Of a DNA stretch of 64,000 bases, positions 17,855 through 25,451 are shown piece after piece. The stretch spans positions 66,219 to 130,218 of the forward strand of contig JBBDXB010000006.1 of NCBI GenBank assembly GCA_040902515.1. The letters run 5' to 3'. The position numbers were made by a program, and so were the translations under genes. Each line of letters opens with the position of its first letter. Positions within the stretch are counted from its first letter, which is position 1. The notes below the pieces were generated by a model that did no database searches, was not told the origin of the DNA, and was given only the letters and a program-made list of their open reading frames with translations. The stretch comes from Patescibacteria group bacterium. GTDB taxonomy: Bacteria; Patescibacteriota; SICC01.

Positions 17855-19126
17855 TCAGGTTGTCATCGCCTTCACGGCACGTCGCAATATCGATGGTAGC
17901 AGCTCCTCGGGGCCCGCGAGATCCAGCGCCAGGTTCGCGAGCGCCATCGGCGTCACGTCCTGCGGACCGGTCAGGCTCCGGGTGTGGTCCTTTACGTTCG
18001 GAATGTCCTCCGGACGGATGAAGTTGACCGTCGGTTTCTTGGCGAACGGAAGCTGTTTATACCATTTGGCGCCGTTCAGCACCTTGGAGACCTCGGGCAG
18101 TTCCGAGCCGCCGCCGCAGAGCAGGATCCGGGCCGGCAGCAGGTCGAGGTTGCCGAACTCCGAGAGCGTGAGTTGCACGCCGGACAGCCAGACGTCGGCA
18201 TCCGCGGCGACGGCCTCCTTCACGAGCTTGGTGGAAGGCTGATCGAGCAATTGGCTGGTGTAGGCCAGCTTCACCTCTTCCGCCTTCTCGAACGGCGAGT
18301 TGAGCGCCTGCGCGAGCCGGCGGGTGAACGTGCGGCCGCCGAGCGCGAACATCTTGGTGCCGACCACGCCGCCGTTGCTGACCACCGCCACGTCGGTGGT
18401 GCCGCCGCCGATGTCGATGAACACCGCCGAGAACTCGGTCTGGTCCTCGATTCCCAGGCAGCGCGCTACCGCGTACGGCTCCGCCGCGATCGAGAGCAGG
18501 TCCAGCCCGAGCTCCTCGGGAATCGCCTGGAGCGCGGTCAGGTGCACGAGCGGCGCGAACGCGTTGAAGATCCCGATCGTCACGTCCTTGCCCTGGAAGC
18601 CGACGGGGTTGGTCACGCGGTAACCGTCGATCCGGACGTCAACGATCGCCGCGTTCACCAGCTTCACGTCAATCTCCGCGTGGCCGGTCTCCCAGGCAAG
18701 CTGCTGGCGCACCTGGTCGAACGCCTTCCATTGCACCTTATGCACGATGTTCTTGAGTTCGGTGAGGTCGATCTTGGTACTCGGCTTGGCACGCTCGTAA
18801 TGGACGGTGGTGGTCGCGCCCTTCACCAGTTCGCCGGCGATGCCCATCACCACCTGTTCCGGCATCACGCCGGCCATCTGCTGCGCCCGTTCCAGTGCCT
18901 TCTCGCAATTCTCGATCACGCCGCCGATGTCGGTGACCGCGCCGCCCTGCATGTCGCCGAGCCGCTGGCGCTGCCGACCGCTACCGATCACCACTGCCTT
19001 GCCATCGACGATCTCACAGATCAGCGCTTTCACGAACTCGGTACCGATGTCGAGCGCGATAAAGTAGTTCGAGAGCGTCTGGTTCGAACCCGCGAAAACC
19101 GAACCGACCTTGTCGAGCAGGCCCAT
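17855..19126 (-). CDS. ftsA: Actin-like ATPase of the FtsA family (cell division protein FtsA-like; PilM-like not excluded)
   Basis: Phosphate-1 motif LDIGTEFVKAL and phosphate-2 FIDIGGGTTDVAVV, with a length (423 aa) typical of FtsA. Confidence 0.65.
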   Translation of the reverse strand: MGLLDKVGSVFAGSNQTLSNYFIALDIGTEFVKALICEIVDGKAVVIGSGRQRQRLGDMQGGAVTDIGGVIENCEKALERAQQMAGVMPEQVVMGIAGELVKGATTTVHYERAKPSTKIDLTELKNIVHKVQWKAFDQVRQQLAWETGHAEIDVKLVNAAIVDVRIDGYRVTNPVGFQGKDVTIGIFNAFAPLVHLTALQAIPEELGLDLLSIAAEPYAVARCLGIEDQTEFSAVFIDIGGGTTDVAVVSNGGVVGTKMFALGGRTFTRRLAQALNSPFEKAEEVKLAYTSQLLDQPSTKLVKEAVAADADVWLSGVQLTLSEFGNLDLLPARILLCGGGSELPEVSKVLNGAKWYKQLPFAKKPTVNFIRPEDIPNVKDHTRSLTGPQDVTPMALANLALDLAGPEELLPSILRRAVKAMTT

Positions 19127-19216
19127 CAGGCAGCGTGGTTATGGTGTTGATGTGTCACCCGTCCATTGTAGCGGGCGGGCGGGCTTCGGCCAGAGAAAGT
19201 CCCCAATCATTGCACG

Positions 19217-19681
19217 ATGACGTCCCCGACCATAAACTGGGTTGTCATGGACCATCCTGAACCGCACCCCACCGAAGCCCTGGAGCAGGCACTCAGCGCG
19301 CACCTGGAAGCGCTGCGGGTAGCAACTCATTGCTACGATCACGAACACGCCAAGGAAATCGCCGGGGAGCTGGCGACGTACGGTCAGCCGGACGAGTTCC
19401 GCTTGGAAGGGCTGTTCGCGCTCGGTGAACTGGCCGAGCAGGAACACGAGTTCGACGAGGCACTCGCGTTCTATGAGGAAGCACGGCAGCTGGCGGTCAG
19501 CACCGAAAGCTATGAACGTGCCGCTGACATCCAGCGATCGGTCGGCTGGCTGTACCGCAACCAGCTCGGGGACCGGGAGCGGGCCCGCGAAGCATTCATG
19601 GCACGAAATGAATACTCCCGGGCCGCGAAACGGTTCCCGCCGCGGCGATTCGGGCGGTTGGTTTCCCACGACGACGATTAA
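19217..19681 (+). CDS. Hypothetical cytoplasmic helical (TPR-like) protein
   Basis: 154 aa, Glu/Ala-rich helical repeats. It is the only + strand gene in this region. Confidence 0.4.
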   Translation: MTSPTINWVVMDHPEPHPTEALEQALSAHLEALRVATHCYDHEHAKEIAGELATYGQPDEFRLEGLFALGELAEQEHEFDEALAFYEEARQLAVSTESYERAADIQRSVGWLYRNQLGDRERAREAFMARNEYSRAAKRFPPRRFGRLVSHDDD

Positions 19682-19743
19682 TCGCGGGCAAAAGAAAAAC
19701 CGCCCCGGCATCTGGTGTGATGTCGGGACGGGTGCCCGTGCGG

Positions 19744-20208
19744 TCATGTATCGGCAGGTCGGGAGTTCGCAACGGCGCGCTTGATGATGCCGCGATGCGC
19801 CGCCACTTTCCGATCCGAAAAGGACTCGTTGACGCGACGGACCGCTGCGGCCAGGATCAGCAGATGCTCCTTCTGCACGGAGACCTCCTCCGGCCGTACG
19901 ACCTCCAGGGCCAGGTAGAGAGCAGGGCGGCTGTGGAGGAAGTCTTTCTTGTCGTCGAACAGGCGCTTCATCAGCGCGTATCGGACGTACTGGACGCGGG
20001 CCTCGTGGAGTACCTCGGGCGTCAATCCGAGCGCACCCGGCGTGACGCCGTGTGCCAGCGCATTGTCGATACCGATGATCGCGTGCTCGTCCCGGTCGAC
20101 GATGCGTTTGGCCCAGCGAAGCTCCTTCTGATTCGGCTTCATCGGGGCAACTGTTGCCATGGCTTTCCTTTCGTCGGGTGAAAGTGCGGTATCCCATGCG
20201 TCATGCAT
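19744..20208 (-). CDS. Hypothetical protein
   Basis: A 154-aa ORF between ftsA and alaS on the same strand, with no motif recognised. Confidence 0.4.
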   Translation of the reverse strand: MHDAWDTALSPDERKAMATVAPMKPNQKELRWAKRIVDRDEHAIIGIDNALAHGVTPGALGLTPEVLHEARVQYVRYALMKRLFDDKKDFLHSRPALYLALEVVRPEEVSVQKEHLLILAAAVRRVNESFSDRKVAAHRGIIKRAVANSRPADT

Positions 20209-22072: not shown

Positions 22073-22123
22073 ACTCTCTAGCTTACGTTCGTTGTTTGCG
22101 TGAAGCGAGAATAAGTCAGCACA

Positions 22124-23860
22124 TCAAAACTGCGTCAAGTCAATCAAATACTCTTTCGATCCGGGCATGGGTTTGTAATGCGGCGGTTCCAACGGACACA
22201 TTAACTCAAAAGCCGGTAAAAGCGGCCAGCAACTTTCCAGCACGGGCACCACCCCATTCATCCGTCGCTGTACCGCATGCTCATAGAAGCCATTGCGATC
22301 GAGGAACCGGTGCTTCAGCGGCTTCGCAAGCACCAGATCGCGAAATCCTCCCGACACCATCGATAACCCTGTTGCGTGCGACGCCATAAACGCTGACAAC
22401 ATCACGGGAGTGCTGGGCGAAACCTGCCGAATCGCTTTCGTCAGCAACTTGAGGATAGCGCTGCTCGTATAACGCGGGGCTAAACCGAAAGTGTAGAGCC
22501 GTGTGGATTCAACCGCGTTGTCGATAGGGAATCCCTGATAGAGCAAGGCATCCTCTTTGTATTCCCGATTTACTCTGGCAGCCGAGATTACGGAAAAAGG
22601 CAGGCTCGCTCCCTTTGCAAACAGACCGAAAGCCCAATCGGCTCGAGGAGAGTGGATGTAATGCAATGAGGCATGTATAACCCTTGCCAGCTCTATCGGT
22701 ACGGGCCTGAATTCGAGTGGAACGAAGCCGCCCCGCTGCTCAGCGGCTCCCAGTTCTCCACCTACCCGGTGAATATGCCAGGTACCTTCAGTAAAATTCC
22801 TGTACTCCCCTTCAATTTCCGACACGAGAGAACTGACGACTTTCAGGCGTTGCTCAACCAAAGCCAGCTGTTCTTCGGCAATGTTCTTAAGCACTTCGGG
22901 CTTCAGCCGATGCTGCGCGATTTTCTCAGCGGACAGCCGCGTGATATTTGACCAATCATTGAAAGCGCCTGCATCGGTAAGATACTCGGCGAGCACGGCA
23001 CCATCGGACACGGCTTTTTCAAACGGAATCGTCGTAAGCCGAAAGGCGATTTGATACTTAAGATCCGTCCTGTCGGCATGTTTCGGCAGCTTCAAATTCC
23101 GCACATAGGAGCTGATTTGTCCCTGCGCCCACCGCATGAGCGGGTCAGTCGGCCAATTCTTGACGGTAGGTTTGGGAGTCAGCTTCGTTCTTCCCTCGAG
23201 GATCGATTTGCGTAAGTTCGTACGACGACTATGGGAACGCTCGGCTTGGGCCATGGCCAAGACCAGACGTGAGAAAAAAGTGTCCAATGGGTACAGGGGA
23301 ATTCGCCAATCCGATCGTTCGCAACATGACCCGGCGGAACCCTTGGGGCAGATATGTATACGATGCCAGCCAGGAGGAAAGTCGGTGGCCTGATTAGCCA
23401 GTAACGCGATGCCTTGGTTGGTGGGTAACCGCCCCAGTGCTCGAGTTACCAACGAATATGCTTTTGCATAGTGCTCGGAGAGGTCCGGGTACTCCATGGC
23501 TTGTCTTTTCAGAGCACCCGCCGTGACTTGTAACGCCTCTTCTTCCGTAAGAAGACAATCATCCGTACGCAGTTGTTTCATCGCACGCCGCGATGCCTGG
23601 CGAGAAGCACCCTCTGTAAGGCCAAACTCCCGGAAGCGCTTCGCCATACTAGGCACCAAAGCATTAAGCCAGATAAGACGATACCCTGTCCTCGGAAAAA
23701 CCTTGGAAAGCAGTCGTGCCGCATTATGCTGTTCGGCTCGTTCACAGACCAGGATAAGGTTTGCCCGGCGAACCAAAGTGCCGGTTGGTGGAGCCGTCCC
23801 GGACGTCGTCAGGTCGGTTTCCATTGGCCGCTTAACCATCGGACCGCCTTCCGGTCTCAA
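22124..23860 (-). CDS. Large orphan protein (578 aa), no recognisable domain; third gene of the low-GC island
   Basis: A long ORF with normal amino-acid composition and lower-GC codon usage than its neighbours. It overlaps the upstream Ham1-like gene by about 29 nt. It contains the Cys cluster HICPKGSAGSCCERSDW. Confidence 0.55.
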   Translation of the reverse strand: MRPEGGPMVKRPMETDLTTSGTAPPTGTLVRRANLILVCERAEQHNAARLLSKVFPRTGYRLIWLNALVPSMAKRFREFGLTEGASRQASRRAMKQLRTDDCLLTEEEALQVTAGALKRQAMEYPDLSEHYAKAYSLVTRALGRLPTNQGIALLANQATDFPPGWHRIHICPKGSAGSCCERSDWRIPLYPLDTFFSRLVLAMAQAERSHSRRTNLRKSILEGRTKLTPKPTVKNWPTDPLMRWAQGQISSYVRNLKLPKHADRTDLKYQIAFRLTTIPFEKAVSDGAVLAEYLTDAGAFNDWSNITRLSAEKIAQHRLKPEVLKNIAEEQLALVEQRLKVVSSLVSEIEGEYRNFTEGTWHIHRVGGELGAAEQRGGFVPLEFRPVPIELARVIHASLHYIHSPRADWAFGLFAKGASLPFSVISAARVNREYKEDALLYQGFPIDNAVESTRLYTFGLAPRYTSSAILKLLTKAIRQVSPSTPVMLSAFMASHATGLSMVSGGFRDLVLAKPLKHRFLDRNGFYEHAVQRRMNGVVPVLESCWPLLPAFELMCPLEPPHYKPMPGSKEYLIDLTQF

Positions 23861-24494
23861 AGAACGTACGAATCGCTTTCTCTAGGCGGTCCCAGGAAAC
23901 TTCCCCTTTGGCCAGCTCGCTTGGCGATAAGTCGAAGAAGTTCTTGCCGAATTGCGGGTAATACCAGAGACTGCAAAGCCAGATTCCCGGCCTGTACTTA
24001 CGACGATCGTAGGATTCCTGCATGATCCCTTTGGAACCATCGACCTCCAGTGAAAAGATCCGCTTCCCTTTGTGGGCGATGGCGGCTGCTTCCCGCCAAA
24101 TCATTTTCCGTTCATCGCCGCGCTTGTCCTTCATAAGCTCAAGGATCGCGTCGAGCCGTTCGAAATCCGTGGCGTTCTCTCGGTTGATGAAACGCCTGGT
24201 GAAAAGTTTATTCCATCTACTGCCCAGAGCAGGAATGTCAATTCCGCCGTCTGTAGCAATGGCATATCCGTCGTACCGCTTGGAAAAAGTAACCGCTTTA
24301 TCCGTCGCGATACTTTCGAAACTTTGTCCTTCTTCATTCAACTCAGCAGAGATGGACGTGTCTTCCAGTCTTACCGGCTCGAAGTATCCGCTGACAATCC
24401 GTGAGAGTTTTTGGATTTTGTGCGGATTGGTCGTGCCTAATAAGATGGTTCTGGTCACAGTCGTACCGCTACATTTTCTTCTAGTAATCGCCAA
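23832..24494 (-). CDS. Ham1/ITPase-family non-canonical purine NTP pyrophosphatase (RdgB-like). The true start is probably internal (around VTRTILLGTT).
   Basis: Motifs GTTNPHKIQ (compare TGNxGKLRE), ATDGGIDIPALG (compare ADDSGL.VDALxGxPG), and a C-terminal W..YYPQFGKNFFDLSPSELAKGEVSWDR (compare GFGYDPIF...EEKN..SHR). Confidence 0.7.
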   Translation of the reverse strand: MAITRRKCSGTTVTRTILLGTTNPHKIQKLSRIVSGYFEPVRLEDTSISAELNEEGQSFESIATDKAVTFSKRYDGYAIATDGGIDIPALGSRWNKLFTRRFINRENATDFERLDAILELMKDKRGDERKMIWREAAAIAHKGKRIFSLEVDGSKGIMQESYDRRKYRPGIWLCSLWYYPQFGKNFFDLSPSELAKGEVSWDRLEKAIRTFFETGRRSDG

Positions 24495-25054: not shown

Positions 25055-25118
25055 GAAAACTAACGATAGTGGCCGTTAGTTATACAACCATGCTTACCAC
25101 AAGTCAACGATAAGCTGG

Positions 25119-25451
25119 CTACTCGTCCTTGCGCAGAATCCGCCGCTTCTCCTTGGCGGCTTCTCTCTTACCCTCACCGGCGGCGTCCTTGATGTCTACG
25201 ATCACGCCGTCCGCGGCTTTCCGGACCTGCGCGACGATCTCGTCCACCGACCGGCCCTGCCTCAACTGTTCGAATTTCTGCTTGGCCTGCTTGCGGGTCT
25301 TCTCGCCCTTATCCGGCGCCAGGAACGCCGCGGCCGCAGCGCCAAGCGCCGCACCGACCGCAAAGCCCGAACCGCCTCCGCCCGACCGCTGGTGCGGACA
25401 GTCCTTGCAGTTGCATTCGTGTCTATGACTCATCGCCCCCAGTATACGCAA
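25119..25451 (-). CDS. Small YtxH/DUF948-like protein (Cys/His-containing N-terminus, Ala/Gly hydrophobic segment, Lys/Glu-rich helix)
   Basis: 110-aa ORF whose pattern (CNCKDCPH, GAALGAAAAAFLAP, charged C-terminal helix) is typical of general-stress YtxH-like proteins. Confidence 0.45.
   Translation of the reverse strand: MRILGAMSHRHECNCKDCPHQRSGGGGSGFAVGAALGAAAAAFLAPDKGEKTRKQAKQKFEQLRQGRSVDEIVAQVRKAADGVIVDIKDAAGEGKREAAKEKRRILRKDE

Follow-up and report, generated by a model that had tools for sequence, protein, structure and literature searches.

[quoted passage not shown] Pre-replicative phage pathways work with several enzymes, as in the dCTPase gp56, dCMP hydroxymethylase gp42 and dNMP kinase gp1 of T4, or MazZ/PurZ of the Z-genome phages. 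Mom takes Gly-tRNA(Gly) as donor and acts on the N6 of adenine in dsDNA after replication, as a single enzyme without a partner; residues H58/Y59, R111 and S124 are functionally important, D149 and R151 at the end of beta5 are essential, and an HTH-like insertion (about 175-209) is required for activity and has been proposed to serve DNA binding (PMC13219725). Fusion proteins of Mom with a restriction enzyme (Mom-REase) are known from jumbo phages (PMC7824862). The Kongming system comprises the deaminase KomA, the HAM1-like KomB and the SIR2 protein KomC, in which KomB is dead (Asp to His) and obligately paired with SIR2 (bioRxiv 10.1101/2024.12.20.629578). In this work, we analysed a window of 64,000 nucleotides from a Patescibacteria genome, in which a three-gene island encodes a 571-aa protein that, judged by profile comparison and structural modelling, is a distant multi-domain relative of Mom with a GNAT domain of the Mom superfamily. 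The reading to which we lean, while stopping short of calling it probable, is that this acyl- or aminoacyl-transferase is the base modifier of a horizontally mobile three-gene module for purine-nucleotide modification.

The Mom-like gene is the last of the island, as the first-pass annotation had described it; the two genes before it run in the same direction, and both junctions are overlaps. The long open reading frame reported in that annotation (22124..23860, minus strand) is present, giving 578 aa when counted from the TTG. An ATG at 23839 is the likelier start and would give the 571-aa form beginning with MVKRPMETD; it shares bases with the stop of the upstream Ham1 gene (ATGGTTAA), and GGAAGG is located 7 nt upstream of it. 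Residue numbers refer to the 571-aa form, and adding 7 converts them to the 578-aa form. At the other junction, the TGA of the kinase gene overlaps a GTG of the Ham1 gene as GTGA, and the likely Ham1 start is this GTG at 24458, not the TTG at 24494 of the mechanical ORF. The promoter-like site upstream of the kinase gene is a weak candidate, and a consensus scan did not report it.

Table 1 Features of the three-gene island and of the Mom-like protein.
Feature	Positions in the window	Strand	Remarks
Gene 1, archaeal-adenylate-kinase-like P-loop NMP kinase, 199 aa	24455..25054	-	Walker A GVSGSGKD
Gene 2, Ham1/ITPase-family NTP pyrophosphatase	23832..24458	-	Pfam Ham1p_like, E 3.5e-12
Gene 3, Mom-like multidomain protein, 571 aa	22124..23839	-	stop codon 22124-22126; ORF reaches TTG at 23860
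Intergenic region upstream of the kinase gene	25055..25118	-	TTGACT-17 nt-TATAAC promoter-like site, by eye
N-terminal domain, residues ~20-215	23195..23782	-	degenerate cytidylate-kinase-like NMP-kinase fold
Cys cluster C164, C172, C173	23321..23350	-	CPKGSAGSCCERSDW, from residue 164
Conserved helical domain, residues 223-351	22787..23173	-	pLDDT >90
Mom-like GNAT domain, residues 352-571	22127..22786	-	Foldseek and hhalign to Mom

The ORF is genuine, coding and kept by purifying selection. Compared with a 62%-identical orthologue (locus L009), pN was well below pS in all three parts of the gene, with values of 0.32 versus 0.79 in the N-terminal part, 0.29 versus 0.77 in the middle part and 0.13 versus 0.74 in the C-terminal part. 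The base composition of the island is foreign, and the three-gene unit is mobile: GC is lower in the island than in the window (0.527 versus 0.639), and GC3 is 0.47-0.60 versus 0.78-0.87 in the flanking alaS and mnmA genes. The genes that flank the island in the window are housekeeping genes. No flanking repeats, integration scars or tRNA gene were found at the island, and the only Rfam RNA elements in the window are two tRNA genes, both located away from it.

Scans of the Mom-like protein alone against Pfam, NCBIfam, PADLOC, PHROGs and PDB sequences gave no matches, and neither did an 83-sequence profile against PDB sequences. A word-indexed homologue search returned just 6-7 relatives, and an exhaustive profile search 309 representative ones; every relative looked up was unnamed or called 'hypothetical protein'. 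The protein is thus not the orphan that the first-pass annotation had taken it for, and its description as lacking detectable domains is right for direct HMM scans but fails for profile-profile and structure comparison, which brought out a Mom-like GNAT domain and a degenerate NMP-kinase-like domain.

Remote-homology comparison, which had been advised along with that annotation, gave Mom as the nearest structure by both Foldseek and profile alignment. With 6 sequences, AF2 gave a poor early model (pLDDT 55), whose Foldseek matches served as a lead only; the model from the 83-sequence alignment reached a pLDDT of 91.3 and a pTM of 0.90. Its best PDB match was Mom (8bv8_B, E 1.8e-9, target-normalised TM-score 0.68), and the next match (E 2.9e-4) was about five orders of magnitude worse. 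By hhalign, the family aligned to the Mom family with Prob 89.9 and E 1.7e-6, and the GNAT domain alone with Prob 94 and E 1.3e-7 over 186 columns. The Pfam model of Mom (PF25680) was matched by 50 of the 83 relatives (E<=0.01), among them P0016 with 31.5 bits against a gathering threshold of 27.1; the window protein itself gave no match to it at E<=1, which counts against our reading.

The GNAT domain carries the motifs H393-Y394-I-H396-x-x-R399, K428, R447-x-Y449, P455-R-Y-T-S-S460, S493, K506, H510, E520 and R525. The counterparts of Mom H58/Y59 are H393 (conserved in 83/83 sequences) and Y394 (82/83), that of R111 is R447 (82/82), and that of S124 is S460 (73/81). Two C-terminal blocks that had been flagged as conserved-looking are present, HYIHSPRADWAFGLFAKG from residue 393 and LYTFGLAPRYTSS from residue 448; no catalytic signature had been recognised there, yet the invariant H393-Y-I-H396-x-x-R399, R447-x-Y449 and P455-x-x-x-S-S460 lie in this part of the protein. 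Against our reading, the window protein has Y457 where Asn stands in 68 of 81 relatives. The region of Mom D149/R151 aligns only with gaps, the family having F-M-P-x-Y-A-x-G and the window protein FMASHATG, with no conserved Asp or Arg; the lack of confidently aligned counterparts of these two residues weighs against our reading as well.

The two preceding domains are of different character. The N-terminal domain is variable through the family and absent from short homologues (345-390 aa). After every row with a P-loop had been removed, hhalign matched it to the Cmk-like domains of fused relatives with Prob 94.3 and E 9.5e-8, compared with E 0.66 for a reversed-sequence control; the core-clade alignment matched the same domains with E 3.1e-5, and Foldseek gave weak matches of this domain to phage dNMP kinases. 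The Walker A motif G-x4-G-K-[ST] occurs nowhere in the Mom-like protein, and VCERAEQHN stands at the P-loop position. Because the homology to kinases goes together with the loss of Walker A, we read the domain as a pseudo-kinase. Its homology extends to Cmk-like domains only, since the comparison with the stand-alone AAA_17 partner kinase was not significant (E 0.03-0.19). The helical domain had no match among known families; its near-invariant residues are W229-P230, D256, D259, Q263, FRLTT, E323 and Q324, of which D256-x-x-D259-x-x-x-Q263 forms a catalytic-looking signature. The Cys cluster to which the first-pass annotation had drawn attention exists, but it is not conserved and carries no weight as a family feature. 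Among the sequences inspected it occurs only in the window protein and its close homologue P0002, in a variable loop that falls in an alignment gap corresponding to the lid-type segment of related kinase domains; a metal-binding role for it across the family was rejected, as it is confined to these two closest sequences.

Both partner enzymes look active, with the catalytic residues of Ham1 and the P-loop of the kinase kept. The kinase matched Pfam AAA_17 (E 6.5e-12) and, below the model cut-off, the NCBIfam archaeal adenylate kinase PRK04040 (E 3.8e-22); among proteins of solved structure, it came closest to archaeal adenylate kinases (1ki9, E 4e-10). The best match of the partner-Ham1 profile was Mj0226 (1b78, E 4.3e-39). 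Residues T21, N23, K26 and D82 are invariant in 10 aligned Ham1 partners, so that the T-x-N-x-x-K motif is kept together with D82, which we take to be the catalytic Asp.

Related loci were found with the 6-sequence alignment, and the closer clade comprised 17 informative loci. The coupling of the gene to two nucleotide enzymes, on which the first-pass annotation had built its functional guess, recurs throughout this genomic-context survey: an NMP-kinase-type gene adjoins the Mom-like gene in all 17 loci, and a Ham1-like gene is present in 16 of them. The kinase is AAA_17-like in 14 loci and guanylate-kinase-like in 3, the latter being a case of non-orthologous displacement, and gene order and orientation differ between loci. 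The same partners recur as fusions to the Mom-like domain, with Ham1 (P0032, P0041, P0150), with AAA_17 (P0069, P0075) and with a cytidylate-kinase-like domain (P0121, P0129, P0131, P0135, P0143, P0152). In all, such fusions with a kinase or Ham1 domain were seen in at least 11 relatives, and in at least 8 of these the fused domain is a kinase. Because these fusions join the Mom-like domain to small-molecule nucleotide enzymes, they argue for a nucleotide as acceptor.

The loci have a patchy spread over phyla, with members in Patescibacteria, DPANN archaea and proteobacterial MAGs, and viral contigs gave a single match only. Other recurrent neighbours are nucleotide hydrolases of the NUDIX, HIT and HAD types; DUF4406 adjoins members of the distant clade, several loci adjoin tRNA genes, and the distant member P0006 is surrounded by radical SAM, methyltransferase and TPP-decarboxylase genes. 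An aminoacyl-tRNA synthetase link was considered and dropped: the next gene is alaS here and hisS in locus L003, and elsewhere nothing consistent appears. That no aminoacyl-tRNA synthetase or tRNA gene is a consistent neighbour across loci counts against the reading we favour. The literature searched described no module of Mom-like, Ham1 and kinase genes, and an earlier mention by Iyer et al. (2009, on DNA-modification systems, or 2013) is possible.

We propose that the module is an undescribed route to modified purine nucleotides. In a first step, the Ham1-type pyrophosphatase would convert a purine (d)NTP to the (d)NMP; in a second, the Mom-like enzyme would acylate an exocyclic amine of the base, with an aminoacyl-tRNA as the donor by analogy with Mom and with the inactivated kinase-like N-terminal domain as its nucleotide-binding module. 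In a third step, the adenylate-kinase-like enzyme would re-phosphorylate the modified NMP, which would then enter the triphosphate pool and reach polymerases. A purine, specifically adenine, is suggested as substrate because the kinase is nearest to archaeal adenylate kinases, Ham1 is a family of purine-NTP pyrophosphatases and Mom acts on adenine N6; by this analogy, the target position is probably adenine N6. We infer, and go no further than that, a free nucleotide and not DNA or RNA as the acceptor, the donor, the order of the steps and the biological purpose. A cell, as distinct from a phage, that adds a modified purine triphosphate to its own pools would be unusual, and this counts against the proposal. 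So do the action of Mom on dsDNA after replication and without a partner (PMC13219725), the moderately basic GNAT domain, and the shorter and differently modelled segment that stands where Mom has its HTH-like insertion. Because the Mom family modifies nucleobases, the homology found here is not to a family unrelated to nucleotides. The gene had been guessed to encode the effector or specificity component of the island, and on the proposed scheme it would plausibly carry out the specificity-defining step.

In a narrower and more doubtful version, the island would be a mobile pathway of ultra-small, symbiotic CPR and DPANN organisms, in which the Mom-related enzyme aminoacylates the base of a free purine nucleotide from a charged tRNA, served by a dedicated pyrophosphatase that provides the monophosphate and a dedicated kinase that brings the product back to the triphosphate pool. 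If true, a mononucleotide would for the first time be known to be modified in a tRNA-dependent reaction. The pathway would also be the first in cells to hypermodify a nucleotide before its incorporation, or else its product would open a new class of base-modified nucleotides that act in immunity or as poisons. In this family, the Mom catalytic scaffold is part of a larger protein that is consistently coupled to nucleotide-pool enzymes, in organisms dependent on scavenged nucleotides. With a free nucleotide as acceptor, modified purine nucleotides would be reached by a new path, and aminoacyl-tRNA would gain a new role outside the ribosome; with DNA or RNA as acceptor, CPR and DPANN lineages would carry an unrecognised modification of nucleic acids. 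Either result would give a name to a family that counts at least 309 sequence clusters.

Purine triphosphates that are N6-modified or deaminated are classic targets of sanitation by Ham1 enzymes, which speaks for another arrangement of the same parts. The Mom-like protein could modify adenine in DNA or RNA after replication, in the manner of Mom, and Ham1 and the kinase could sanitise or salvage the modified mononucleotides that are released. This alternative survives best, and we consider it somewhat unlikely. The closest relative, Mom, does modify dsDNA (PMC13219725), and the GNAT domain is moderately basic (median pI 9.1), which fits nucleic-acid binding. However, its net charge of +5 is far under the +16 of Mom, and the segment equivalent to the Mom HTH-like insertion (about 512-542) is shorter and is modelled otherwise, as a beta-hairpin and a one-turn helix. 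Pool sanitation, moreover, needs no dedicated NMP kinase, yet the kinase is the most constant partner, both as a neighbour (17/17) and in the fusions. Nor is a restriction or nuclease partner conserved, unlike in the phage Mom-REase fusions (PMC7824862).

An antiviral role is unlikely in our judgement. By analogy, the enzyme and the kinase might together produce a purine triphosphate with a modified base, which would poison polymerases or serve as an immune signal, while Ham1 would protect the producer or reset the signal; viperin together with a kinase offers an analogue. The mobile and compositionally foreign nature of the island would fit such a role, as would the patchy distribution over phyla and the tRNA genes beside several loci. 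Kongming sets a precedent, since it unites a HAM1-like protein with a base modifier and a dNMP kinase around dITP (bioRxiv 10.1101/2024.12.20.629578), and the partner-Ham1 profile matched KomB with E 2.1e-25. On the other hand, the Ham1 partner keeps the Asp that is His in KomB, no SIR2 or other effector is linked, PADLOC matched 0 of the 3 island proteins, and the island sits among housekeeping genes in the window. Neighbouring radical SAM genes do match pVip models, yet viperin was not among their matches in PDB sequence searches, where one matched peptide-maturase-type radical SAM enzymes and the other two had no match; we attribute the pVip matches to generic radical SAM similarity.

It is more improbable still that the protein is an ordinary acyl-CoA-dependent GNAT whose substrate for acetylation is a small molecule resembling a nucleoside or nucleotide, as might occur in antibiotic resistance or in the tailoring of natural products. 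The GNAT fold itself, the many acetyl-CoA-dependent GNATs at Foldseek E values of about 1e-3 and the gene neighbourhood of P0006 are in keeping with it. However, Mom outscored all CoA-dependent GNATs by about five orders of magnitude, and the gene surroundings in the closer clade show no conserved biosynthetic cluster. The CoA pyrophosphate loop Q/R-x-x-G-x-G/A between beta4 and alpha3 is also missing, with a Mom-type P-x-N-x-S-S in its place ((S)-x-P-G-x-P-x-N-T-S-S in the family, F-G-L-A-P-R-Y-T-S-S in the window protein). Finally, a GNAT toxin acetylating aminoacyl-tRNA (TacT/AtaT type), hinted at by tRNA-acetylating toxins among the weak Foldseek matches of the first, low-confidence model, or a metalloprotein built on the C-x7-CC cluster is extremely improbable, since TacT, AtaT and KacT are single domains of about 170 aa with a small antitoxin whereas this protein has 571 aa, three domains and no antitoxin, and since the cluster is limited to the two closest homologues inspected, in a domain that is dispensable in the short forms.

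Among known systems, malonyl-CoA decarboxylase has the same two-part layout of a helical and a GNAT domain as the Mom-like protein (Foldseek E about 3e-4), but with very low TM-scores of 0.16-0.20, an rmsd of 16-20 Å, no sequence relationship and other catalytic residues. Like Kongming, the module combines a purine base modifier, a HAM1-like protein and a nucleotide kinase step. We rejected membership of that system, since Ham1 D82 is invariant in the 10 aligned partners and SIR2 is absent from the conserved or recurrent neighbours; furthermore, the kinase is encoded by the module and not borrowed from a phage, and the modifier is a GNAT and not a deaminase.

The T4 and MazZ/PurZ pathways resemble the module in co-encoding an NTP pyrophosphatase, a base modifier, which in those pathways works at the NMP level, and an NMP kinase, and this likeness speaks for our reading. 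The enzyme families are wholly different: the modifier is a Mom-like GNAT here and thymidylate-synthase-like or PurA-like there. The module described here is cellular and has a purine exocyclic amine as its putative target. The jumbo-phage Mom-REase proteins, recovered as structural neighbours, are likewise multidomain members of the Mom family; their partner is a restriction-type nuclease that follows a modification-restriction logic, whereas the partners here are an NMP kinase and Ham1, and a nuclease is not conserved. With Mom itself the family shares the GNAT fold, the H-Y motif, the beta4 Arg, the P-x-N-x-S-S loop in place of the CoA-binding motif and a basic character. Whereas Mom has about 231 aa, this protein counts 571 aa, including two additional domains, and has a second invariant His, H396. 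Its genes lie on chromosomes of Patescibacteria (CPR) and DPANN and not, as for Mom, in phages, and, where Mom works as a single enzyme, the closer clade is always linked to nucleotide enzymes.

On the minus strand, the open reading frame picked out by the first-pass annotation proved to be real and, read from its TTG start, encodes 578 aa. An alternative ATG at 23839, which shares nucleotides with the upstream gene's stop codon (ATGGTTAA) and is preceded by GGAAGG 7 nt upstream, would give 571 aa and seems the more probable start; residues are numbered here on this form. Against the orthologue in the related locus L009 (62% identical), pN was 0.32, 0.29 and 0.13 for the N-terminal, middle and C-terminal thirds of the comparison, and pS was 0.74-0.79, meaning saturated synonymous sites. 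Since pN lies far below pS in all three parts, this comparison indicates that the frame is coding over its whole length, so that the 376-aa call in the NCBI entry for the identical protein (a Patescibacteria MAG) is probably a truncated version of the true protein.

Direct scans of the target against Pfam, NCBIfam, PADLOC, PHROGs and PDB sequences gave no match, and a word-indexed search found six relatives only. Using an alignment of these relatives as seed, an exhaustive HMM search (E<=1e-3) retrieved 309 representative clusters, 90 of them at E<=1e-30, and the protein can no longer be called an orphan. All source names seen were "hypothetical protein" or blank. With MAG taxonomy taken as deposited, genome matches came from Saccharibacteria, other Patescibacteria and a few proteobacterial MAGs, and from the archaeal Micrarchaeota, Nanoarchaeota and Woesearchaeota; IMG/VR viral contigs gave a single weak match.

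An AlphaFold2 model built on an 83-sequence alignment was confident (pLDDT 91.3, pTM 0.90) and comprised three parts. Its top Foldseek match in the PDB was phage Mu Mom (8bv8_B, E 1.8e-9, TM-score 0.68 normalised to Mom), and the next matches, malonyl-CoA decarboxylase and generic GNATs, were weaker by about five orders of magnitude. Profile-profile comparison with hhalign, whose E-values refer to single pairwise comparisons, matched an alignment of 47 Mom homologues at Prob 89.9 and E 1.7e-6, and for the GNAT domain alone (residues ~352-571) at Prob 94 and E 1.3e-7 over 186 columns. The Pfam Mom family (PF25680) was matched at E<=0.01 by 50/83 aligned relatives, with P0016 above the gathering threshold, and not at all by the window protein. 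The earlier statement that no domain is detectable thus holds for direct scans but not for structure and profile searches, and we are highly confident that the target is a Mom-superfamily GNAT.

Mom moves glycine from Gly-tRNA(Gly) onto adenine N6 in dsDNA, where the glycyl group rearranges into a carbamoylmethyl group; residues R111, S124 and R151 are essential and D149 important, activity drops strongly in H58A, Y59A and Y159A, and an HTH-like insertion is required (Silva et al., PMC13219725). In the target, H58/Y59 correspond to H393/Y394 (83/83 and 82/83 in the family) and R111 to R447 (82/82). The P-R-N-S-E-S loop of Mom, ending in S124, corresponds to P455-R-Y-T-S-S460 (P in 81/81, S460 in 73/81), where position 457 is Asn in 68/81 relatives and Tyr in the window protein; Mom and the target family share this type of loop in place of the canonical CoA-binding Q/R-x-x-G-x-G/A. 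Unlike Mom, the family has H396, a second invariant His, and R399, likewise invariant, carries F-M-P-x-Y-A-x-G where D149/R151 would lie, with no confidently aligned counterpart of either residue, and has a shorter segment replacing the insertion; the net charge of the target GNAT domain is +5 versus +16 for Mom. The target would work like Mom and is taken as a member of its superfamily, yet it is not filed as a Mom orthologue, because the Pfam threshold, D149/R151 and the insertion each separate the two or leave the matter open, as does Mom proper's single-enzyme, phage-borne, dsDNA-acting character.

Preceding this domain, a helical domain (residues ~223-351) is kept throughout the family, with near-invariant W229-P230, D256, D259, Q263, E323 and Q324, and matches no known family. 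The short natural versions of the protein in L020-L022 and L024 (345-390 aa) lack the variable alpha/beta N-terminal domain (residues ~20-215), which in L002 has an ORF of its own. After rows with any P-loop-like motif were removed, its alignment matched the cytidylate-kinase-like N-terminal domains of longer relatives in a single hhalign comparison (Prob 94.3, E 9.5e-8; E 3.1e-5 with only 24 core sequences; E 0.66 for the reversed-sequence control), in the kinase order of beta1/P-loop, helical insert, beta3, beta4 and C-terminal helix. Because of this match and the loss of Walker A (VCERAEQHN), the domain is best described as a putative degenerate, catalytically dead NMP-kinase-like domain. 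This suggests that kinase and Mom were fused in an ancestor and that the kinase activity later passed to a separate gene. The previously noted Cys cluster (C164, C172, C173) and two C-terminal blocks were found in place. The cluster falls in an alignment gap matching the lid-type segment of related kinase domains and, among the sequences inspected, is common only to the target and its closest homologue P0002; it was rejected as a family feature, and the reading as a Cys-cluster metalloprotein is not supported.

The target comes last, as first described, among three genes that run in the same direction and overlap at their junctions (kinase TGA and Ham1 GTG overlap as GTGA). The three form a compositional island, with GC of 0.527 against 0.639 for the window and GC3 of 0.47-0.60, compared with 0.78-0.87 for alaS and mnmA on its flanks. 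The promoter-like site was absent from consensus-scan output. A small protein similar to YtxH (Pfam E 3e-11) is encoded between mnmA and the island, and its N-terminal part contains an H-x-C-x-C-x2-C-x-H stretch. The high-GC flanks hold two long ORFs, rich in Arg, Pro and Gly, that resemble frame or antisense artefacts of real genes nearby, such as a 423-aa ORF. Since only 51 nt (22073-22123) separate the Mom-like stop from the alaS start on the same strand, co-transcription is possible; in other related loci no linkage to an aminoacyl-tRNA synthetase was seen, save hisS in L003. Genes for tRNA lie no more than a few hundred bases from the module in L014, L015, L020, L022 and L025, and their differing identities (Ser/Arg, Asn, Cys, Gln, Phe) fit island-type insertion, not a specific tRNA partnership.

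Location of features in the window and in related loci (L-numbers)
Feature	Location	Strand
Mom-like gene (TTG start)	22124-23860	minus
Its variable N-terminal domain	23195-23782	minus
Ham1/ITPase-family pyrophosphatase gene	23832-24458	minus
Kinase gene, archaeal-adenylate-kinase-like P-loop	24455-25054	minus
Promoter-like site TTGACT-17 nt-TATAAC, directly upstream of kinase gene, spotted by eye	within 25055-25118	
YtxH-like protein	25119-25451	minus
Arg/Pro/Gly-rich ORF	19139-20197	minus
Arg/Pro/Gly-rich ORF	17984-19150	plus
423-aa ORF	17855-19126	minus
Stretch with guanylate-kinase-like gene adjoining Ham1, no AAA_17 kinase	L014:5705-6745, L019:5547-6651, L023:5599-6910	
DUF4406 protein adjoining distant-clade gene	L025:7407-7925, L029:7370-7852, L030:8057-8518	
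Context of P0041 fusion	L034:3800-10600	
Neighbourhood of P0006	L003:272-4693	

For synteny, HMMs from the kinase and Ham1 genes were run over the ORFs of all fetched loci, with gene calls taken as longest ORFs. Among 18 non-redundant closer-clade loci, all 17 with usable flanks had an adjacent NMP-kinase-type gene (14 AAA_17-like, 3 guanylate-kinase-like) and 16/17 a Ham1-like gene, the Ham1-like genes belonging to two divergent subfamilies. The genes vary in order and orientation, which argues for selection on linkage rather than one inherited operon. Fusions of the Mom-like domain to Ham1 (P0032, P0041, P0150), AAA_17 (P0069, P0075) and cytidylate-kinase-like domains (at least six representatives) were also found. 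The tight coupling to two nucleotide enzymes proposed at first reading is thus borne out, and its functional nature is very probable. The partner Ham1 profile matched Mj0226 best (E 4.3e-39), and all 10 aligned partners keep T-x-N-x-x-K and D82, which we take to be the catalytic Asp. A YunG-family (PF24585) gene accompanies the guanylate-kinase-like and Ham1 genes in L014 and L019, the two scanned. Around the P0041 fusion are NUDIX, Sua5/YciO-family, acylphosphatase, GIY-YIG, 2H (LigT-like) phosphoesterase and histidine phosphatase genes and a 219-aa protein with a GS...DxD nucleotidyltransferase-like motif, with a PLD nuclease and SNF2 helicase close by. In the distant clade (L003, L025-L030) neither partner was found; DUF4406, which we take to belong with nucleoside deoxyribosyltransferase-like families, adjoins the gene in three loci. 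P0006, the most divergent full-length member (L003, also L004 and L005), has next to it a pair of radical SAM genes, a TPP-dependent decarboxylase that is split, a methyltransferase and hisS; these may be an unrelated biosynthetic cluster. Scanning 132 neighbouring ORFs gave no further conserved partner and no conserved nuclease or effector; the nucleotide hydrolases NUDIX, HIT and HAD recurred.

The best-supported reading is that the target would be a nucleobase acyl- or aminoacyl-transferase central to a purine-nucleotide modification pathway. Acylation of a nucleobase exocyclic amine is, on balance, probable. A free nucleotide as acceptor is a serious possibility slightly short of that, favoured because the modifier is fused to small-molecule nucleotide enzymes, the target carries a pseudo-kinase domain, partner kinases show non-orthologous displacement and the positive charge is lower than Mom's. 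Adenine N6 is suggested by the likeness of the partner kinase to adenylate kinases, by the purine specificity of the Ham1 family and by the target of Mom itself, and the non-canonical donor loop common to Mom and the family leads us to propose, more tentatively still, aminoacyl-tRNA as donor.

Modification of DNA or RNA in the manner of Mom, the kinase and Ham1 processing released modified nucleotides, is plausible, as Mom acts on dsDNA and the target domain is still basic, but it leaves unexplained why the kinase is the most constant, and also a fused, partner. An antiviral or signalling nucleotide module is suggested by island mobility and the Kongming precedent; however, the Ham1 partner retains the Asp that is His in defensive KomB (bioRxiv 10.1101/2024.12.20.629578), no SIR2 or other effector is linked in related loci, and PADLOC matched none of the three island proteins. 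Neighbours with apparent pVip matches did not hit viperin when searched against PDB sequences: one resembled peptide-maturase-type radical SAM enzymes and two gave no match. A conventional GNAT that uses acyl-CoA to modify a small molecule is disfavoured, given the absence of the CoA loop and the ranking of structural matches, and a GNAT toxin is not supported.

No description of a Mom-like/Ham1/kinase module was found in the searchable literature, and earlier mention in older comparative-genomics papers is possible. The purine-nucleotide modification pathway that we favour follows the logic of pre-replicative phage pathways such as T4 gp56/gp42/gp1 and MazZ/PurZ, which join an NTP pyrophosphatase, a base modifier and an NMP kinase: the pyrophosphatase gives the monophosphate, the modifier acts and a dedicated kinase takes the modified product. 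The island presents this same combination of pyrophosphatase, putative modifier and NMP kinase.
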